Shown here: positions 9,933 to 62,955 of the stretch, piece by piece | Layout of the letters: each line of letters opens with the position of its first letter | Numbering within the stretch: the first letter of the stretch is position 1 | Origin: Fistulifera solaris | Lineage: Eukaryota | Assembly: GCA_030295235.1 (NCBI GenBank) | Contig: AP026162.1 | Location: 1,116,001-1,180,000 of the forward strand | Direction of reading: 5' to 3' | DNA: 64,000 bases | Made by a program: the position numbers and the translations under genes | The notes under the pieces: model-generated | Told to the model about the DNA's origin: nothing | Databases searched by the model: none | Seen by the model: only the letters and a program-made list of their open reading frames with translations

Positions 9933-10275
9933 TCTCTTTTGATTGTGCAGTATTAGTAAAGGACTCTACTTGTAGCGAATCGCGGCTTGTTTAATAATGT
10001 ATGGTGCCAATAATAACAAATAATGTTGTAAATTAATGCAAATAAGGCACTTTGATCGGAGTGAAGTATCTTTGCGTGATGCGTCGTGCAAAAGCAAAAG
10101 TCTTTTTTTAAACGGACAACACTAACTACAGTGAAATGTTTAGCTCTTTTTTCACTATACAACTCATCTTACGGTACTCGGAACTCGTCCCCCGCCCGCC
10201 TTATTATTTTTTTGCAACAACCAATGCGGCCGTTTTAGTTTCATTGATGATTACCCTGTAGGCAAAGTTTGTAAC

Positions 10276-12191
10276 ATGGATGACCTATTTGCCCTCGTCG
10301 AAGAAGATGATAATCAACAGGTTCTAGGAGGAGATGATGCGTCGCAGACCTCTGACCCTCGTCGAGGAGCTTCTACTTCTCCTGCCCCTCCGAGGGATAA
10401 TATTCAAGAAAGACTGTCATCGTCGATCGATGCACAAATTGGTTTACGAATTATCAATCGCAAGATATCGGGAGCCGAAATGATGGATATGATCGCGGCG
10501 TCAGTCTATCGATCGCCGGCTATGCTCAGTGCCATGAGTCTTAACGATCTCAACAACCACATTCTCGCAGAGCCCACCTTGGTGGTCGATGCTTCGACAG
10601 TTTGTGGCCGCACCAACTTTTGCACTGTTGGGATGGTCTTTTCCAATTCCGGGACACGAACGTCTTCTACGGGAAATGCCTTTTGCGCTCTGACATTGGG
10701 TAATTTTGCTAGCGGACCTGCGATTAGTGTTTTACTCTTTGGGACTGCCTACAGCAAATACGTTCGAGCTCTGACACCGGGAAAAGTCGTCTTTTTGGAA
10801 AATCCCCGTCTCGTGCCCAGTAAAAGCAATAAATCCGACCGCAAAGAAACTTCCATTTCGTTTTCGGTCAGCATTGAGAGGGAGATTCAACTCGTGGGAG
10901 ATGCACAAGACTTTGGAATTTGCAAAGCAATGGTTCGCGGAAAGAATGAAAATGGACAGTGGACGGACAATGCGAAACGCTGTAAAACGTACGTGGATAC
11001 TCGCGAGTGCTTGTACTGTAAAGTGCACCGTCAGCAAAACAACGTCGTGGATGAATCGTCGGGAAATAAAATGGAGAAACTCCGACAAGAAGCAAGAGAG
11101 AATCCGTCTCAAACCAAGTTACCGGGTCATCGACCGGGAGATCATTTGCAAAAACCGACCAATCCAGCACAGTCCATGCTCCGTTCGGCGGCTCAGCCAT
11201 CCGTGGGATCAAGCGTCCGTGCTTATCAACCATATGAAGCTAGGCAACAATCGACTAATCCACTCTTAAAAGATTGCGTCGCTAAGCCAGCAGTACGACG
11301 CGGCGCTGGGTCTGCCGCTCTATCGAAAAACCTACATCAAGGTTCGACTAAAATGACCCCTGCTACAACGAGTCAATTACCTTGTCGGGGTATCGCGAGC
11401 AATAAACGTTCGTCCGTTTCGACCACTTCAAAACCAGATCTTCTTAGTCAGATTACCGGAGGTCGATCGAATGGCAACAAGAGGAAATTCGCATCGGTCA
11501 ACACGGACACAGGTCATTTCGATGGCCAAGTTCCAGTGCCCAAACCCAAGCAGTTTGCTCCTATCGATCGAGAAAGGGCCTCCATGTACCAGGCCAAGCA
11601 TCAACGGCCTGTTCTAGAAGTTGGGTCAAAGTCTGAAACGTACATTCGTATGCGACAAAGACAACTAGCAGAACAGCGCAAGTGCGACATCAAAAGTCTT
11701 CCTTTGAGACCCACGCCGCAAAATCGGCTCCTTTCTCAGAAGAATGGCTCCCATGTGCTACAAAAAGCCAAGGGAAGCGACATTTTTGGGTCCGTCAGCA
11801 AAGATGAAATGGCGCGTGTTATGGCTGCCAAAAGTCGCTTCGCCGACGAAGCGGACGCGGAGGAATATGCTCGAGCAAGACAAGCCGTATCAGAGCTCGA
11901 AAAGAAGAATTCAAGACATTACGAAAAGACAAGAACAAGCAAAACACAACAAATCAACGACCGTCGTCGATCAAGACGGAATATTTTTGCATACAATGCA
12001 AACGAAATTATGTGAAAGTTCCACCGTCGTGTCACCTCATGGAGCACAAGATACGTGTCGATCGAAAGATTCTAGGTAATCAAACCACGGCGGAGAAGCG
12101 CATGATGCTTTCGACGAAAAGTGTGGAAGATGGCGGTATGGTTTTGGCACAAGGTATCGATTGGGACAGTCGATTTAGCTATAGATCCTAA
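10276..12191 (+). CDS. MCM10: DNA replication factor Mcm10; frameshift ~11905
   Basis: OB-fold region followed by zinc finger DFGICKA...RCKTYVD...CLYCKVH. The shifted frame gives a C-terminal YFCIQCKR...C...H zinc motif ending TAA at 12189-12191. Confidence 0.85.
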
Positions 12192-12239
12192 AACGATAGG
12201 TGTCTTCATGAGCACTGCTAGTACCAAACGATGTAAAAA

Positions 12240-12788
12240 TTAATGAGCCTCTTCTTCGCAGTGGGCCTTGTATGCGTCAGCGCTCAACAATGACTTCAAT
12301 TCCGCTTCGTCTTTGATTTCGATCTTGACAAACCAAGCTTTGCCTTCGGCCTCCGAGTTGACCATTCCGGGCTCATCCGAAAGAACTTCATTGACCTCAA
12401 CTACAGTGCCGCTGACAGGTGCATATACATCCGATGCAGCCTTGACAGATTCGACACTTCCAAAAGATTCGCCCTTGGCGAATTCGTCTCCTACTTCTGG
12501 AAGATCGACGAAAACAATGTCACCCAATGCAGCCTGAGCGAAATCGGTAATTCCACAAGTACCGATTTTTCCATCTACTTTGACGTACTCGTGGGCTAGA
12601 AGAAGAAACAATAGTTACTGAACTATGAGGAGAAGCTTTCGATTTCTAATGTTTCAGTAAAAATCCTTACCAGGAGTAAAATAGGACGAGAAGCGGACAC
12701 CTCCGAGGTGTGTGACGCGGCTCATACGAGCGACGCTGTCGAACGATCGACGAGCTACTGTGCGTGTCAAGAAGCTAACGGAAGCCAT
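12240..12788 (-). CDS. gcvH: Glycine cleavage system H protein, mitochondrial; one intron ~12597-12671
   Basis: HEYVKV, GITDFAQAALGDIVFVDLP, lipoyl motif VESVKAASDVYAPVSG; exon 1 has an Arg-rich transit peptide. Confidence 0.95.
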
Positions 12789-13014
12789 GTTGTATGTTTT
12801 AGTAAGGAAACAGGAAGATTTTTCTTAGCTGTTGATGTTACTACGATTCTTTCAATGAATGCTATGAAACTCGTCTTATCACTTTACCAATCTCGTCGCT
12901 TTTTCATTGCGATCGATGCGGCGTTGCCGTTGCGTCACTGCGGCAGTATCTTCAAAATGTTGCAAACGTCACACCTTCATTGTTGAGGCTCCTGATGACG
13001 TCAACACACATTTC

Positions 13015-14865
13015 CAACAGAAAGTCTGAGCCTGCGGTGTTTTCACGTATCCAGAAAATCTGGGGAGTGGTGTTTTCACATTCCCAGGAAATCTGGGGGT
13101 ATGGTTATTATACTCCGTACAAAGTACTACGTACTGTACCTGGTACGTGCTCCATTAATAAAATCTGGACCTGCTTCCAGAAAATCTGGGGGTGTGGTTA
13201 TTATACGAGGTCCAGAAAATCTGGACCACTTGTATTTTCACGCCACCAGGAAATCTGGTTGATTGGTATTTGCACGTGATCCAGAAAATCTGGACCAACT
13301 GCATTTTCACGTTCCACCAGGAAATCTGGTGGGGTGGTTATTGTACGTGGTCCAGAAAATCTGGACCACTTGTATTTTCACGCCGCCAGGAAATCTGGTT
13401 GATTGGTATTTGCACGTGGTCCAGAAAATCTGGACCAACTGCATTTTCACGTTCCACCAGGAAATCTGGGGGTGTGGTTATTATACGTGGTCCAGAAAAT
13501 CTGGACCACTTGTATTTTCACGTCACCAGGAAATCTGGTTGATTGGTATTTACACGTGGTCCAGAAAATCTGGACCAACTGCATTTTCACGATCCACCAG
13601 GAAATCTGGGCGGGTGGTATTTACACGTGGTCCAGAAAATCTGGACCAGTTGTATTTTCACGTACCCAGGAAATCTGCGGGAGCACGTTCAACCAGAATA
13701 TCTGGGTGTTTGATGTTTACACGTGGTCCAGAAAATCTGTACCAGTTGTATTTTCACGCTCCTAGGAAATCTGGGGTGTGGTATTTACACGTGGTCCAGA
13801 AAATCTGGACCAATTGCATTTTCACGCTCCACCAGAAAATCACGGGGATTGGTTTTAAAAGTGGTCCAGAAAATCCGGACCATTGTTTTTTCACGTTCTC
13901 AGGAAATCTGGGGGAGTGGTATCTACAGTGGTCCAGAAAATTTGGACTAGTTGCATTTTCACGTTCCCAGGAAATCAGGGGGTGTGGTATTAGAAAATCT
14001 GGACCAGTTTCATTTTCACGTTCCACCAGGAAATCTGGGCGGGTGGTATTTACAAGTGGTCCAGAAAATCTGGACCAATTGCATTTTCACGTTCCACCAG
14101 AAAATCTGGGAAGTGGTGTTTACACGTGGTCCAGATAATCTGGACCAATTGCATTTTCACGTTCCACCAGAAAATCTGGGAGTGTAATAATTACACGTGG
14201 TCCAGAAAATCTGGACCATTTGTATTTTCAAACTACCAGGAAATCTGGGGGTTCGATATTTACACGTGGTCCAGAAAATCTGGACCAGTTGTTTCTTAAA
14301 ACGTTTGCAGGAAATCTGGATGACTGATATTGACACTGGTCCAGAAAATGTGGACCAGTTGTTTTTAAAAACGTCTGCAGAAAATCAGGGAAAGTGGTAT
14401 TTACACGTGGTCCAGAAAATCCGGACCACTTGTATTTTTACGTTCCCAGGAATTCTGGGGGTGTGATATTGGAAAATCTGGGGGTTTATTGTTTTCAGGC
14501 CTCCAGAAAATTTGGGGGTGTGGTGTTTTCAAGTCTTCAGAAAAAATGGACCAGTTGCATTTTCACGAAAAAACTTTACACCGGTCCAGAAAATCTGGAG
14601 CAGTTGTATTTTCAAACTACCAGAAAGTCTGGGTGACTAGTATTAACATTGGTCCAGATAATCTGAACCAGTTGTATTGTCACGTTCCCAGAAAATCTAC
14701 TGTTCCAGAAAATCTGGACCTGTTGCACTTTCACGTTCCCAGGAAATATGGACGTTGCGGTATTAATACGCCTCCAGAAAATCTGGGCTCTAGTGGTGTA
14801 CCAGGCATTCACGTTTCCAAAAAAATCTGGGAGTGTGGTATTTACAATGCTCCAGAAAATCTGGT
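13015..14865. repeat. Tandem palindromic satellite: ~35-bp monomer, 70-bp dimer, 140-bp higher-order unit, roughly 50 monomers
   Basis: Core CCAG(A/G)AAATCTGG recurs about every 35 bp; TGGTCCAGA-AAA-TCTGGACCA recurs about every 70 bp; near-identical 140-bp blocks start at 13211, 13351 and 13491. Confidence 0.97.
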
Positions 14866-14999: not shown

Positions 15000-15992
15000 A
15001 TGAAATTAAGAAGAACGATCTTATTCTACAATTCAATCGCAGCGTACAGCGTCGAAAGCTTTCCAATGGCCATATCTCAGCAGAAACGCCAATATCGGAA
15101 AAGTGGTGTTTATTTTTTGAACCGATTCCTCCTCAGCCCCGAAGAAGTCAGTCAAGACGAAGATTCTTCATTGCCTTATGCTGTTCTTGGGAAAGATGAC
15201 TATCGGACGATTCACGCGGCAAAAATCTTGAATCTTAGAAATGGAGACTCCGTTCGCGCTGGTCTGGTCAGTTCTGAAGATCACAACGGCTTTCTCACCG
15301 ACCATGCCACTGTTCAATGGTTACCCGAAGGAAAGGTCAAAAAGGCCGAAGTTTTAAACAATGGCGATCCACCTGGATCGCTCCATATCAGACTGCAATC
15401 ACTTGAGTCGTCAACTCAGCGCTTTTCCCACTCCGTTAGTCTCATCTTGGCCTTGCCACGCCCGCTACAACTAGGTAGGATGCTGCCCATGATATCCCAA
15501 ATGGGAGTTGATCATTTAGTTCTTACAGAAGCACGAAAAGTACCAAAAGATTACTTCGGATCTCATCTATTCCGAAAGCCAGAATTGTTAACCGAACGAT
15601 TGATCGAGGGTCTCTGTCAGTCGGGTGATACGAAGCTGCCCCAAGTTACAGTTGTCAAAAATCTCTCGCAGTTCATGGACGATACACTGGACGAACTGTT
15701 TCCTCTACACAGTCATGCAAGAGTGATTGCGCACCCACAGCGAGTCGTCAAAGATCGAGTGATTGAGTCTGTTCGAATGCGCTCGGTCACTTTTCCCACG
15801 GATTCACCGAGGAGAATGGTTATTGCGGTAGGGCCCGAAGGAGGCTGGGAAGAGCCCAATGAAATCGAGAGATTTGTCAATCAACATGGCTTCCAGCAAA
15901 TTACGATGGGTACACGGGTGCTTCGAAGTGATTGTGCGGTTGTGAGTCTTTTGGGATTGGCGCACGACATTTGCGATGACTACTCTGGATGA
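15000..15992 (+). CDS. rsmE: 16S rRNA m3U1498 methyltransferase RsmE family, probably organelle-targeted
   Basis: HAAKILNL, LILALPRP, EGLCQSG, AVGPEGGW, MGTRVLRSDCAVV (SPOUT fold). Confidence 0.9.
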   Translation: MKLRRTILFYNSIAAYSVESFPMAISQQKRQYRKSGVYFLNRFLLSPEEVSQDEDSSLPYAVLGKDDYRTIHAAKILNLRNGDSVRAGLVSSEDHNGFLTDHATVQWLPEGKVKKAEVLNNGDPPGSLHIRLQSLESSTQRFSHSVSLILALPRPLQLGRMLPMISQMGVDHLVLTEARKVPKDYFGSHLFRKPELLTERLIEGLCQSGDTKLPQVTVVKNLSQFMDDTLDELFPLHSHARVIAHPQRVVKDRVIESVRMRSVTFPTDSPRRMVIAVGPEGGWEEPNEIERFVNQHGFQQITMGTRVLRSDCAVVSLLGLAHDICDDYSG

Positions 15993-23620: not shown

Positions 23621-26069
23621 TTATTTATCTTCTTTTAATAGTTGGTCGGCTAGCATTCTTAGACCAAAAACACCTCTGGGTTCTGTATCCATGTATTCAC
23701 ATTTGGTGACTCTGGGTGGGTTGCCCATTGAGGACAAGAATGATTCCAGATTGTCGATCGAAATTTTTTGCCCGTGACTAACATGCGATACAAAGTTTTT
23801 CAGGTCCTTGTCATTATCCTCCAACACCTGGTTCACGACCACGTTCCGAACCTTGATCGGCATATCAGGGGCTTCAAATGTCAAGTCATTAAGTAAACGG
23901 ATACTCTCACGCGCGGCAAGCTCGCTCGCAATTGTGACGATAAGAAATTCAGTCTGTTCGGCATCGGCAAACAAATCTTCTAGGTCGTACATCTGAAACT
24001 GAAACGACAGCAAAGCCGACTTTGCTGTAGCAGCAGCATTCGCAATCTGTTCTGACCTGGACGAACCGCCGATGAACATTTTCACCAAGCTGTTTGAATT
24101 GACTTTTTCCGCGATGGCCAAAAGACGCTCAATCAATTCTGCAATAAATCCAGGAGTGCTGAGCATACGGAGCGTGTGCCCTGTGGGGGCTGTGTCAAGC
24201 ACGATTCTGTCATAATCACCGTTCTTTACCAGCTTAATGATTTTAGCCAAAGCGACAACCTCATCAGTACCAGCTGGAAGTGTATTGAATACTTCTTGGA
24301 TTTCTCGTAGAGTGTTGCGCAAGCCGGCATCAGCTTCGGAAGCATCATCCACACCCACTAGCTGATCGACCAAACCTTTAAATTCACTGAGAGATGCGGC
24401 AGGATCTATCTCTAAAACAGAAAGACTTCCGTCACCAGGAGGAACCCCTATCAAAGGGCAATCCACGAGGCGGCCTCCTGCCAAATTCATATCGATTGCA
24501 TCACCCAGACTGTGGGCAGGATCCGTGCTGATCAAAGCCACACGGTGCCCCTTCGCGGCCATAGTTACTGCCAACGAAGAAGACGTTGTTGTCTTACCGA
24601 CGCCTCCCTTTCCGCCGCAAATGACCACCTTTGGCGAGTCGCGCTCATTATGAGCTTCCATGAGATGAGAGAAGCCAGGATTCTCAGCGTAGCACTGATT
24701 CCCGAGATATGCCAGAGCCGGGACACCAACAAGTTCGACATCGAAAAAGGGTACCTTTGTCAGACAAATAGGATTTGGACTTCCATTCGCTCTGTACGCG
24801 TTGCTCTCACTAACTTCCTTTATTGTTGCACTCAGCTTGTTAATCCATCTCTCCTGACCAGAACGTCTCCTTTCATAGTATTTCTCAAGAGGGGTTGTAT
24901 CTTCTGTTTCCTGGTAGCCGATGCACTGGTTGACCACAATATCGGTGACACTGACCTGCTGTGAGCCAAGCTCCGACACAAGACGTTTTGACTCTTGCAC
25001 ACCAAGCTTTGATGGGATTGCAACTACGATAAAATTTGTTTTCGACCTGTCTTGTAGTTTTTCTCGCAGAATACCCATTTTGGTCCTAAATTTTTCCAAG
25101 CGGTTAACTGCATCGTCAATTGCTTTTGCCCTCTGCTCAGCTTGGGAATTTCCCAAAAACGCTTGCAGGGTTGAAGTAAGACCAGCCAGTTTCATCCTAA
25201 GGTTGATAAGCTTCCCTAATAATCCATCCAAGAACTTCGGTAGAGCTAATAGACGGAGGGTGTGACCTGTCGGAGCAGTGTCTACTACAATTACGTCAAA
25301 GTCACCCGCCATAGAGTCATTATCCAATACATTCGAGAGAGCCACCAATTCATCGAGACCAGGAGGAGGATTGTTGAGCAAACCACTGAATTCTCGAAGT
25401 CCAAGGCTTTCGAGAATGTCTGGCGAAATGTTCAATGCTTCCGCCAGCTGATCAATATCAAATGCAGCTAGATTTTCCCGGAACTCATCCAGAGCAGCTG
25501 CAGCATCTACCTCACAAGCAAACAACCGTCCACCTGTCAACGGATCTGTCATCTGTAAAGGTTTACCATGGCTCTTTCGTAAATCTTCATCCAAAGCATC
25601 GCCTAAAGAATGTGCAGGATCGGTGGAGACAATGAGGACCTTAAGATCCTTCTGTATATCAGATGCCAAGCTCACCGCGAGCGCAGAAGAGACGGAAGTT
25701 TTCCCTACTCCGCCTTTTTTTAAATAAGGGTGAGTTTTACGTGATGAATGGCGACGCATCGCTCGACAGAACTAATGTGCGTTCCTGTACCATCGTACCT
25801 TTGCCACCCACAAAAATAGTTCTTGTACCGCTCGTCGACGAATCGCTTAGGTCATCCATAAGAGTTTTCAGCGAGTAAAGAGAGGATTGCGTTTTCCTCG
25901 TAAAACATTCCGAACGCGGACGAGCTAACGGGGCAATCGTAGGATTCTCGACTCGTCGAATCCCAGTTTGTGGATAAAATCGTAAAACCCGCAGCGGCTG
26001 GAACGCATCGATGAAGCCGAGAATCAAGCATGCAGCTATCACGTTCACCAAGGCTCTTTTTGATCGCAT
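23621..26069 (-). CDS. arsA: Tandem two-domain ArsA/GET3 ATPase with plastid-type bipartite presequence; intron ~25714-25798
   Basis: Two copies each of GGKGGVGKT, STDPAHSLGD and DTAPTGHTLR; signal peptide MRSKRALVNVIAACLILGFIDA-FQP. Confidence 0.92.
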
Positions 26070-60568: not shown

Positions 60569-62955
60569 ATGAGTGAGAATTCGACGACGACGTCGGCGGG
60601 TCGAGACGACAGCAGCGACCTGTCCGCCGAGGCGCGAACGGGTCGAGAAGGCGCGAGCCCAAGCAATGACGACACGTACATTGTCGAAGCTTTGTTCCGC
60701 AATGGCAAGATTGGCCGTAATGTGGTCTGGCTCGCACCGCCGAGTGACCCTGAAGTCTCATGTCTTCGCGCAGGCGATGTGATCCAATACGAAGACTCGA
60801 CACCAGGCCAAGGTGAAACAATGATCGTTGCGATGGTCATGGAGGTTCAAAGAAGCTTTTCTACGAACTCTGTGGATCTAGTGGTACGTTTTGTGTAGCT
60901 GCTGTTTTGAAAGCAGCAAATGAAGTTATGCTCAACTTTCTTCTTTAACATTAACAGATGAGTAACGACTCGTGGTGCTTGAATAACTATAAATTGAACA
61001 TCCTGGAGCGGGTTGTATATTCCTACGATGAAGCGACAGGCGCCCACAGCAAGCGTTGGGTAAAGTTTCGTTCGACGAAAGACTTTCATTTTATGCAAGA
61101 TTGTTTTTATGACTTTAGCAGCAATAAGATGGTCCGCGTCGATGAGTATACGGGCGAGTACATGAAGGAGATTCGCGCAAACCAACCCCCGCCGTCACCA
61201 AGCGAGAAGGACGATTACGATTCAAGACGATTCCCGCAGTCATCACGGACCGCCACGACAAGGGTTTCTCTCGATTACCGTACTGATCTGGGAACGGTTC
61301 GCGCTCTTCAAGAAGAAGCTACCAATCAGGAACCTGTACTTGATGCCAATTATGAGGATTCCTTGGATCTCGGGCCTGCGTCGGACGACGAAGCGGAGGA
61401 AATCGATAGTGTTGTGGTTGGGGAGGGTAGATCAGAAGCGGGGTTCTCGACGAACTACGCTGAGTGTCCGGAAGACCTTCACCGATGCAGCAAAAGACGA
61501 AAACTGATGGGTGGTCCGGCTGCTAAAAGATACTCTTACTTCTGTACTTGCCCTGTGTGTAATGCAAAAGGTTTCGAGAAGGCTATGTACATATCTTTTG
61601 ACGTCGACGAAGCATTCGTGTACAAAGACACAGAACAGGACGAGTATGATTGTAAACAGCAAGTGATGTTGACTGAAGACAGTTTCCTTTCCCCGGACCA
61701 TAGATTACCGAACGTGTACAGAAAGCAACGAGATCGTCTTCGTCGGCATCTAAAGAAGACGGCAATCCAATTTCCGGATTACTTAGTGCCAGCGATCGCT
61801 TTTCTTCACAGCGAATCAGATGAACTTATAGGGAAAATGACTGTCGGCAAGTTACGATCCAACCAGTTGACCCGGGACGGAGCCAACTCGATTGCATTGG
61901 AATCGGTAAACCATGCAACCGGCCCCCAAGCCCGCCATTCATTGCCTGGTATGAGAGGCGGCAGTGATCCATCCGATCTTTCACCTACCGCCTCGCCGTC
62001 CTATACAAACGGCCTTGGGTTCAGGTCGTTTGCACAACCTGAAGACGGCGCGACTCGAACGATACGCCCACAATGTGCTCCCGGTCCCCAAGCCCGCCTT
62101 CCTTTACCTGGTAATCGAGGCGGTAGTGATCTATCCGATGGTCTGGCTCTTTCACGCACCACCTCGCCGTCTTATACAAACGCTCGGCCATCTGCGCAAC
62201 CTGAAGGCAGTGCGATTCGAATTCTACGCCCACAACGTGCTCCTGGTCCCCAAACCCACCGTCCATTGCATGGTACTAGAGTCGATAGTGATCTGTCCGA
62301 TGTTCCGGCTCTTTCACGCACCGCCTAGCCGTCTTATACAAACGGCCTTGGGTTTAGGTCATTTGCACAACCTGAAGGCGGCGCGACGCAAACGACACGC
62401 CCACAACGTGCTCTCGGTCAACCGCAATTTGATGTCACGACTGAGATGAAAATGCTCACACGACGAGTCCTTACGGCACTAGCGGCAGATTCTACGACTG
62501 GCCGGGCGAGTTTGTCGCAAAATCTGTTCAGCTATTTGGAATACTCCGTACACAAAATTCGCCAGAACATACCCAATGAACACACAGTTGATGAAACTAA
62601 ACTCAACGCAGTAACGTCTTTATTGGACCATGTTTCATTGACAGGGGAGCTGCAGCAGATGTTTCAAAGAGGATTGATCAGACAGGAGGTGCTTCGTATA
62701 ATAGAAGAGGCTGAGGAACGTATGCATCAATGCCTACTAGTCTGTCTCCGCGAGTTTCCACACGCTGTAGAGCGCACCTTCACCGACGGTTCCGACAAGC
62801 TGAGAGAACAGAATTCTCGTTTAAGTTTCAAAATTCTTGCGGTCATTCAGCAAGTGTCAAAAAGTCGTGATGATGCTGTCGAGGTGAATGTGAAAGATGA
62901 ATTCAATCGATTATTGTCGGGCCTCAAGAAGTGTCTGGATGTATTGATTATGTAA
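60569..62955 (+). CDS. Hypothetical protein with CxCxxC motif and three ~54-aa internal repeats; intron 60884-60957; in-frame TAG at 62326-62328
   Basis: A phase-0 GT-AG intron joins ORFs 60569 and 60958. The frame stays open after the TAG and runs into ORF 62446..62955. Confidence 0.65.
61921..62415 (+). repeat. Three coding tandem repeats of 162/162/171 bp
   Basis: Units start GG(C/T)CCCCAA at 61921, 62083 and 62245 and encode GPQ...G..SD......T.SPSYTN....AQPE....RPQ.A. Confidence 0.9.

Follow-up and report, generated by a model that had tools for sequence, protein, structure and literature searches.

A palindromic minisatellite array between gcvH and an RsmE-type gene of Fistulifera solaris belongs to a dispersed and apparently undescribed repeat family

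The spacer between gcvH and an RsmE-type methyltransferase gene of the diatom Fistulifera solaris contains a 1.85-kb array of palindromic monomers, which is a large copy of a dispersed short-repeat family and is supported neither as a centromere nor as a recognisable jumping gene. The best explanation, to which we give an even chance of being correct, is that the array represents the local expansion of one member of a non-coding minisatellite superfamily found genome-wide, that its 13-bp core is a recognition site and that units with an intact core are copied preferentially. The features of the locus are given below with their positions in the window, i.e., the whole 64-kb stretch of DNA that was analysed.

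12240..12788, minus strand: gcvH, encoding the glycine cleavage H protein (PF01597), with one intron at 12596-12670 that is skipped by a contig of run X4
13017..14864, plus strand: minisatellite array with 54 monomers (about 34-36 bp), every one of which consists of an imperfect 13-bp palindrome and, after it, a T-rich linker; types A and B alternate and form a 68-71-bp dimer
13108..13155, no strand: non-repeat interruption with short TAC...GTA palindromic words, like words being found in or near other arrays
13177..13665, plus strand: youngest block, about 3.5 copies of a 140-bp higher-order unit, with diagnostic variants private to the window locus (25 arrays counted)
14026..14445, plus strand: second block, older, in which the periodicity is limited to that of the 70-bp dimer; monomer identity 0.82 at lag 2 and 0.75 at lag 4
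15000..15992, plus strand: open reading frame of the RsmE-type RNA methyltransferase gene (PF04452)

The two genes flanking the array are divergent and were identified by Pfam as GCV_H (E 1e-42) and Methyltrans_RNA (E 1e-24). Read from the sequence, the start codon of gcvH is 228 bp from the array and that of the RsmE-type gene 135 bp past it; the contig of run X4 that omits the gcvH intron extends to 12851. Three further observations were made elsewhere in the window: an MCM10-like frame at 10144-12200 ends prematurely close to 12015, where several letters are different in run X1, which may be an assembly indel; a single frame on the minus strand at 23621-25771 encodes a tandem ArsA/GET3-type ATPase with two domains; and a 162-bp tandem repeat of 2.3 copies overlies open frames at 62031-62419.

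The initial annotation had counted roughly 50 monomers built on a CCAG(A/G) dyad, and this count was borne out. When the core CCAG(A/G)AAATCTGG was searched on the plus strand, 54 copies with at most three mismatches were found between 13017 and 14864 (50 with at most two mismatches, 28 exact), and the rest of the 64-kb window contained only three matches, each with two mismatches. Monomers of type A, which have long arms, and type B alternate along the array, but the perfect palindrome that had been ascribed to every second monomer was found in its 21-bp form just nine times. The two linkers are homologous, as had been proposed; their identity was 0.47 compared with 0.32 ± 0.09 for shuffled sequences, and the homology is thus modest but present. 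Tandem Repeats Finder gave periods of 33-36, 69-71, 140 and 210 bp, the 140-bp period having 3.6 copies with 93% matches at 13177-13677. In the block at 13177-13665, monomer identity was 0.64 at lag 1, 0.82 at lag 2 and 0.94 at lag 4, and the corresponding values at 14026-14445 were 0.61, 0.82 and 0.75. Therefore, the 140-bp unit is confined to the first block, and the suggested growth from 35 to 70 to 140 bp fits the data, with its last step seen only at 13177-13665.

With its head-to-tail, non-coding monomers and higher-order units, the array is a satellite. Its GC content is 43.7%, and the count of low-GC windows was 0-1. None of the frames over the array, including one of 291 amino acids, matched Pfam, and a coding reading based on that frame was discarded. 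Rfam gave just three weak matches on the array, all far under the gathering scores. A scan for sigma-70 promoters, inapplicable to a eukaryote, showed merely a hairpin and a T-rich tail per unit. The array strand folds well, with a hairpin potential of z -7.7.

Not only the 54 cores and the 35/70/140-bp hierarchy but also independent contigs, which agree inside the array, demonstrate that the array is real. Contigs from two runs of different studies were identical to parts of it, without differences, which speaks against an assembly artefact: run X1 contigs matched the array region exactly at 13797-14051 and 12735-13224, and a run X2 contig matched exactly at 13797-14091. The X1 and X2 contigs cover the array in parts, none of them end to end, and one run may be the source material; therefore, the independent confirmation applies to the array with its exact length excluded. 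The depth over the consensus-like unit was at least 60-fold that of the flanks.

The genome of F. solaris is a 51.7-Mb allopolyploid with compact, intron-bearing genes, in which the window flanks are 87-91% identical to contig C2 and C3 is 86% identical to C4. The 19-bp palindrome of type A had 250 exact matches in the genome (control, 0). The first 100 matches listed, in agreement with local counts, fell into 33 clusters, of which 13 were on C1, 2 on C2, 9 on C3 and none on C4. The 13-mer core had 1,338 exact matches (control, 4) and a sister palindrome with TT..AA outer arms had 1,380 sites (control, 0), these two counts overlapping in part. At least 21 clusters with at least two exact cores were found in the first 1.29 Mb of C1, i.e., at least one cluster per ~60 kb. 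C2 and C4 carry more diverged arrays, so the contrast between C1 and C2 and between C3 and C4, which rests on pattern listings and targeted sites, is one of close copies of the C1-derived pattern. The core and the first linker recur in families with periods of 52, 57, 70 and about 208-250 bp; in the 52-, 57- and 70-bp families the spacing from A to B is constant (33-36 bp), whereas that from B to A is variable. Array lengths across the family range from 0.1 to 1.9 kb, and the intergenic arrays, which are spread over many chromosomes and vary in presence and length, have the properties of a euchromatic satellite. The initial annotation held that many scattered copies inside a known transposon family would speak against a centromeric or structural role; many scattered copies were indeed present genome-wide, but not within a known transposon family.

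In metagenomes, the paired-core pattern gave eight matches, each with only two or three cores and unrelated linkers, and these were read as chance. Related arrays were found in none of the viral contigs, and there was no plasmid or phage match, in collections that may contain no records near this genome. A published description of the palindrome family was not found in the literature, but the repeats in the supplementary figures of one preprint, of which part was available (10.1101/2021.11.10.468027), may be the same family. The minisatellite is apparently undescribed and lineage-restricted, and the kind of DNA that it represents is already known.

On the partner chromosome (C2), the window site carries 9 units in 288 bp instead of 54, a six-fold difference in size. 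The partner site was resolved for 14 arrays, of which 10 were absent from the partner (L031 twice, L032, L033, L036, L038, L039, L040, L053 and L127, the last viewed from C2) and 4 were shared (the window, L034, L051 and L052); for L035, L041 and L050, no homoeolog was present in the stretches compared. Most of the empty partner sites were too diverged for the junctions to be read, and absence in the partner can reflect loss instead of gain. At L033, a block of ~530 bp stands in place of 42 bp, with no duplication. One linker variant was sorted by chromosome set: form one was found in arrays on C1, C3, C5, C7 and C13, and the second form was dominant on C2 and C32, including the shared site, with single copies also on C1 and C3. 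Identity was 0.833 within arrays and 0.807 between arrays, a small difference in the direction expected of concerted evolution. The linker variant is sorted by chromosome set and the variants of the 140-bp unit were seen solely in the window among 25 arrays, so the arrays exchange sequence across a genome and expand in place. Two pairs of loci may be mentioned here. L038 (4452-4657) and L039 (3590-3797), which lie 47 kb apart on C1, share a 209-bp segment (97% identical) that follows the array at one locus and precedes it at the other, possibly a co-copied flank or a circular permutation. A 52-bp-type array at L036:7755-8001 (C1) and a 35-bp-type array at L129:9310-9500 (C2) probably occupy the same spacer.

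When units were chosen by their linker alone (94 units from 11 arrays), the core was 0.95-0.96 identical to the consensus, compared with 0.58-0.85 elsewhere. In 16 arrays that were recruited via an exact core match and whose variant counts are not independent of each other, singleton changes amounted to 23.9 per 1,000 sites in the core and 34.4 in the linkers, variants present in at least two units to 0.063 per column in the core versus 0.357 in the linkers, and the array majority deviated from the family consensus at 0 of 396 core columns versus 43 of 625 linker columns. With hypervariable linker positions set apart, the values were 0.06 for the arms, about 0.07 (0.073) for the loops and 0.25 and 0.31 for the linker boxes. 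In the 132 full A palindromes, 73 arm changes were single and none formed a compensated pair; this is a weak test, only 1.2 double changes being expected. Selection for a hairpin within the 70-bp family was rejected, as there were no compensatory pairs, and the core appears to be kept as a sequence and not as a hairpin. The intact 13-base core amid a drifting remainder hints at protein recognition, and the failure of core variants to spread suggests that a hidden reader recognises the core. That the array consists of dyad binding sites, an idea already contained in the initial annotation, would fit both the high identity of the core and the lack of compensation among the 73 arm changes.

Core conservation may also be caused by faster homogenisation, because the core is present in every monomer and is symmetric. 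Taken to its end, this leads to a fully neutral satellite with no core-reading protein, in which uniformity comes from gene conversion or template switching that corrects the core more often than the linkers because each dimer has two copies of the core and because it is present in all families and on both strands. We consider this explanation unlikely, albeit worth serious weight. It is consistent with the singleton rate of the core, which is near that of the linkers (23.9 versus 34.4 per 1,000), with the strong hairpin potential (z -7.7) and with the outer arms, which vary symmetrically between families (GT..AC 174, TT..AA 37 and mixed 14 of a total of 462); such symmetric classes could also be yielded by a hairpin or template-switch process. 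However, the linker boxes are homologous too, and yet variants spread in them four to five times more often than in the arms. Moreover, the 3-nt loop, which is beyond the reach of symmetry correction, is constrained like the arms (0.073 versus 0.06), and the spacing from palindrome A to palindrome B is held at 33-36 bp in the 52-, 57- and 70-bp families. These three observations speak against the neutral explanation, with which the constrained loop is not easily reconciled.

The arrays are located upstream of at least one gene. With crude ORF calls and with the window placed in the divergent class by hand (automated count, 19), 20 of 32 array spacers were divergent compared with 8 of 27 window gaps of at least 200 bp (p 0.02), and none of the 32 was convergent compared with 5 of the 27 (p 0.002). 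Convergent gaps may just be filled by 3' UTRs, in which case their avoidance would suit a neutral satellite as well, as does the gathering of retroelement tails and other repeats in the same spacers. Array spacers often contain two further dispersed repeats as well, one a family of 210-430 bp and the other a short hairpin module (L037:4130-4950, L046:2870-3500, L035:1130-1540; L031, L041, L044, L057 and L130). Several arrays are interrupted or flanked by TAC...GTA palindromic words, which also occur in other spacers (window 13108-13155; L031:4650-4780; L123:3555-3600); we take them to resemble excision footprints of TA-targeting transposons.

The same orientation data (convergent, 0/32 versus 5/27; divergent, 20/32 versus 8/27) would be consistent with use of the arrays by the host, as clustered putative factor sites, most likely of the heat shock factor (HSF) family, that tune adjacent promoters and differ between homoeologs. 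The sister class, TTC-nn-GAA-W-TTC-nn-GAA, goes in this direction. The TTC/GAA sites bound by oomycete HSFs can have gaps of 0, 1 or 2 bases (PMC11267843) and HSFs are the largest transcription factor family in diatoms (PMC11986044), and both gap tolerance and abundance would favour host use. But if a heat-shock element is defined as at least three alternating TTC/GAA triplets with 2-base gaps, just one of the four triplets of the window class is perfect and the sister class has gaps of 2, 1 and 2; the top reported PtHSF2 motif is telomere-like and unlike the palindrome core. Furthermore, the other subgenome does without 10 of the 14 sites, the window site differs six-fold in size, the neighbours in the window are housekeeping genes, and the orientation test was built on crude ORF calls. 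Regulation by the host is a quite unlikely explanation. An HSF-type binder is a candidate for the putative reader of the core. A bolder version, which we regard as distinctly unlikely, is that of transposase-free, self-spreading arrays of factor sites, with several thousand cores and a putative heat-shock-type reader, that would have arrived in front of genes separately in each parental genome and would set the stress response of homoeologs in the hybrid. In the hybrid genome, promoters can be compared in matched pairs of which one carries an array and the other does not, and an effect on homoeolog expression is thus testable with ordinary RNA data.

DNA transposons typically show presence/absence differences between subgenomes and promoter-side placement, and both are seen for the arrays. 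The array might have been the internal or subterminal repeat of a transposon of some other family (MuDR, hAT, Mariner, Crypton, Polinton or Helitron-like) whose ends have since decayed; the initial annotation had named the internal repeat of a non-autonomous transposon as one possibility. The L033 array has a short inverted match at both ends, but this match is under the 95th percentile of the null. A shared terminus was not found in the flanks of 33 loci, and terminal repeats in 34 arrays were not in excess (inverted 7.4 and direct 7.4 versus 7.3 and 7.3 in the null), a comparison in which old, decayed ends could be missed. The lack of common flanks and of a terminal-repeat excess speaks against a transposon, as do the Harbinger loci: of 20 10-kb loci taken from 24 DDE_Tnp_4 matches, only 1 had an array, on one side only, and the palindromes at the other loci differ in sequence, so a Harbinger subterminal repeat was rejected. 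At L107:3448-3565, a 20-bp tandem repeat with a similar palindrome and a 4-base loop lies beside a Harbinger-type transposase. A profile search with Helitron_like_N (PF14214) gave no match, the control being silent too. An origin from within a transposon is highly unlikely.

Least probable of all, and in our view extremely unlikely, is a function as a centromere unit or as a dispersed (holocentric-like) kinetochore site, the former also put forward in the initial annotation. The higher-order satellite structure is in line with it, and so is a preprint on F. solaris in which just 8 of 22 chromosome pairs showed a clear low-GC peak and three putative centromeres contained small repeats (10.1101/2021.11.10.468027). 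However, the first 1.29 Mb of C1 has at least 21 clusters, the arrays are only 0.1-1.9 kb long, and most sites are not conserved between homoeologs. Phaeodactylum centromeres are described, in the text available, as low-GC and repeat-free (10.1101/096016), whereas the array has a GC content of 43.7% and a low-GC count of 0-1. The array thus lacks what marks a diatom centromere, namely, low GC, about one copy per chromosome and a position kept in homoeologs. Taken together, the family is dispersed, the array is not low in GC, neither terminal repeats nor target duplications nor common ends were found, and only 1 of 20 Harbinger loci carries an array, so neither the centromeric nor the transposon-internal reading is supported.

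A separate observation concerns a published centromere motif. Motif 1 of the F. solaris centromere/ARS motifs, as printed in the available part of the preprint (10.1101/2021.11.10.468027), had 35 matches in the genome with at most one mismatch. The copies have one common end and are cut at varying points at the other, and the longer ones run into frames with reverse-transcriptase motifs (RVT_1, E 5e-4, below the cut-off); the last frame of the retroelement matched only unnamed protein clusters in a protein atlas. Therefore, motif 1 probably represents the 3' tail of a non-LTR retrotransposon that is truncated at its 5' end and has some 100 candidate copies, presumably of the type labelled CRE. 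The tails are found at loci L138-L192 (e.g., L144:1480-1815 and L181:1531-3216), some of them inside palindrome arrays. Of 54 distinct tail loci, 11 had at least two cores at a distance of up to 900 bp, a number pooled from 8/30 (two being one duplicated region) and 3/25 (one locus being repeated). At 774 kb of C2, a tail interrupts an array whose C1 partner has no tail. Most motif 1 tails are away from arrays, and none is in the window. For diatom engineers it may matter that a published centromere/replication motif looks like a retrotransposon 3' end.

Returning to the recognition-site explanation, the building block consists of two 13-bp palindromes ~34 bp apart. Recombination-based repair or circular intermediates would carry copies of short blocks to new places between genes, and the seeded blocks would expand by slippage and unequal exchange. 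The core would be a sequence-specific site for a putative DNA-binding protein that acts as a dimer or oligomer, and copying would be confined to units whose core is intact. The array would then be selfish or tolerated DNA, with no host function needed for its size of 1.85 kb.

Bacterial REP/BIME elements are ~35-bp palindromic units of two alternating types with two linkers, which form hundreds of intergenic clusters and are associated with an HUH (RAYT-type) transposase. The diatom arrays are like them in unit size, alternation, the two linkers and the hundreds of intergenic clusters, but their units are head-to-tail and eukaryotic. Like diatom centromeres, the array is intergenic, non-coding and 1-2 kb in size, but it is not low in GC, occurs many times per chromosome and is not conserved in position (10.1101/096016; 10.1101/2021.11.10.468027); none of the three motifs printed for F. 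solaris is the array palindrome (10.1101/2021.11.10.468027). The same preprint mentions repeats between LPAAT genes, in supplementary figures, and describes arrays of double-hairpin elements of 75 bp and 35 bp in the mitochondrion of Thalassiosira pseudonana (10.1101/2021.11.10.468027). By this description, these are similar to our arrays in having two hairpins per ~70-bp unit and a 35-bp sub-form, whereas the F. solaris arrays are nuclear and dispersed. In Caenorhabditis, Helitrons supply arrays of heat-shock elements (PMC6927752). The likeness lies in lineage-specific repeats, clusters of the TTC/GAA type near genes and differences between genomes; in F. solaris, however, no Helitron ends or helicase were found (with a silent profile control), and the window core is a poor heat-shock element. 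The euchromatic satellites Cast1-Cast9 of Tribolium castaneum, for which seeding by recombination or circles has been proposed (PMC11610590), differ from the diatom arrays, which have monomers of 35-57 bp, a fixed palindromic core, lengths below 2 kb and a compact genome around them. Both are spread through gene-rich DNA on many chromosomes, exchange sequence between these, elongate and homogenise locally and lack regular junctions.
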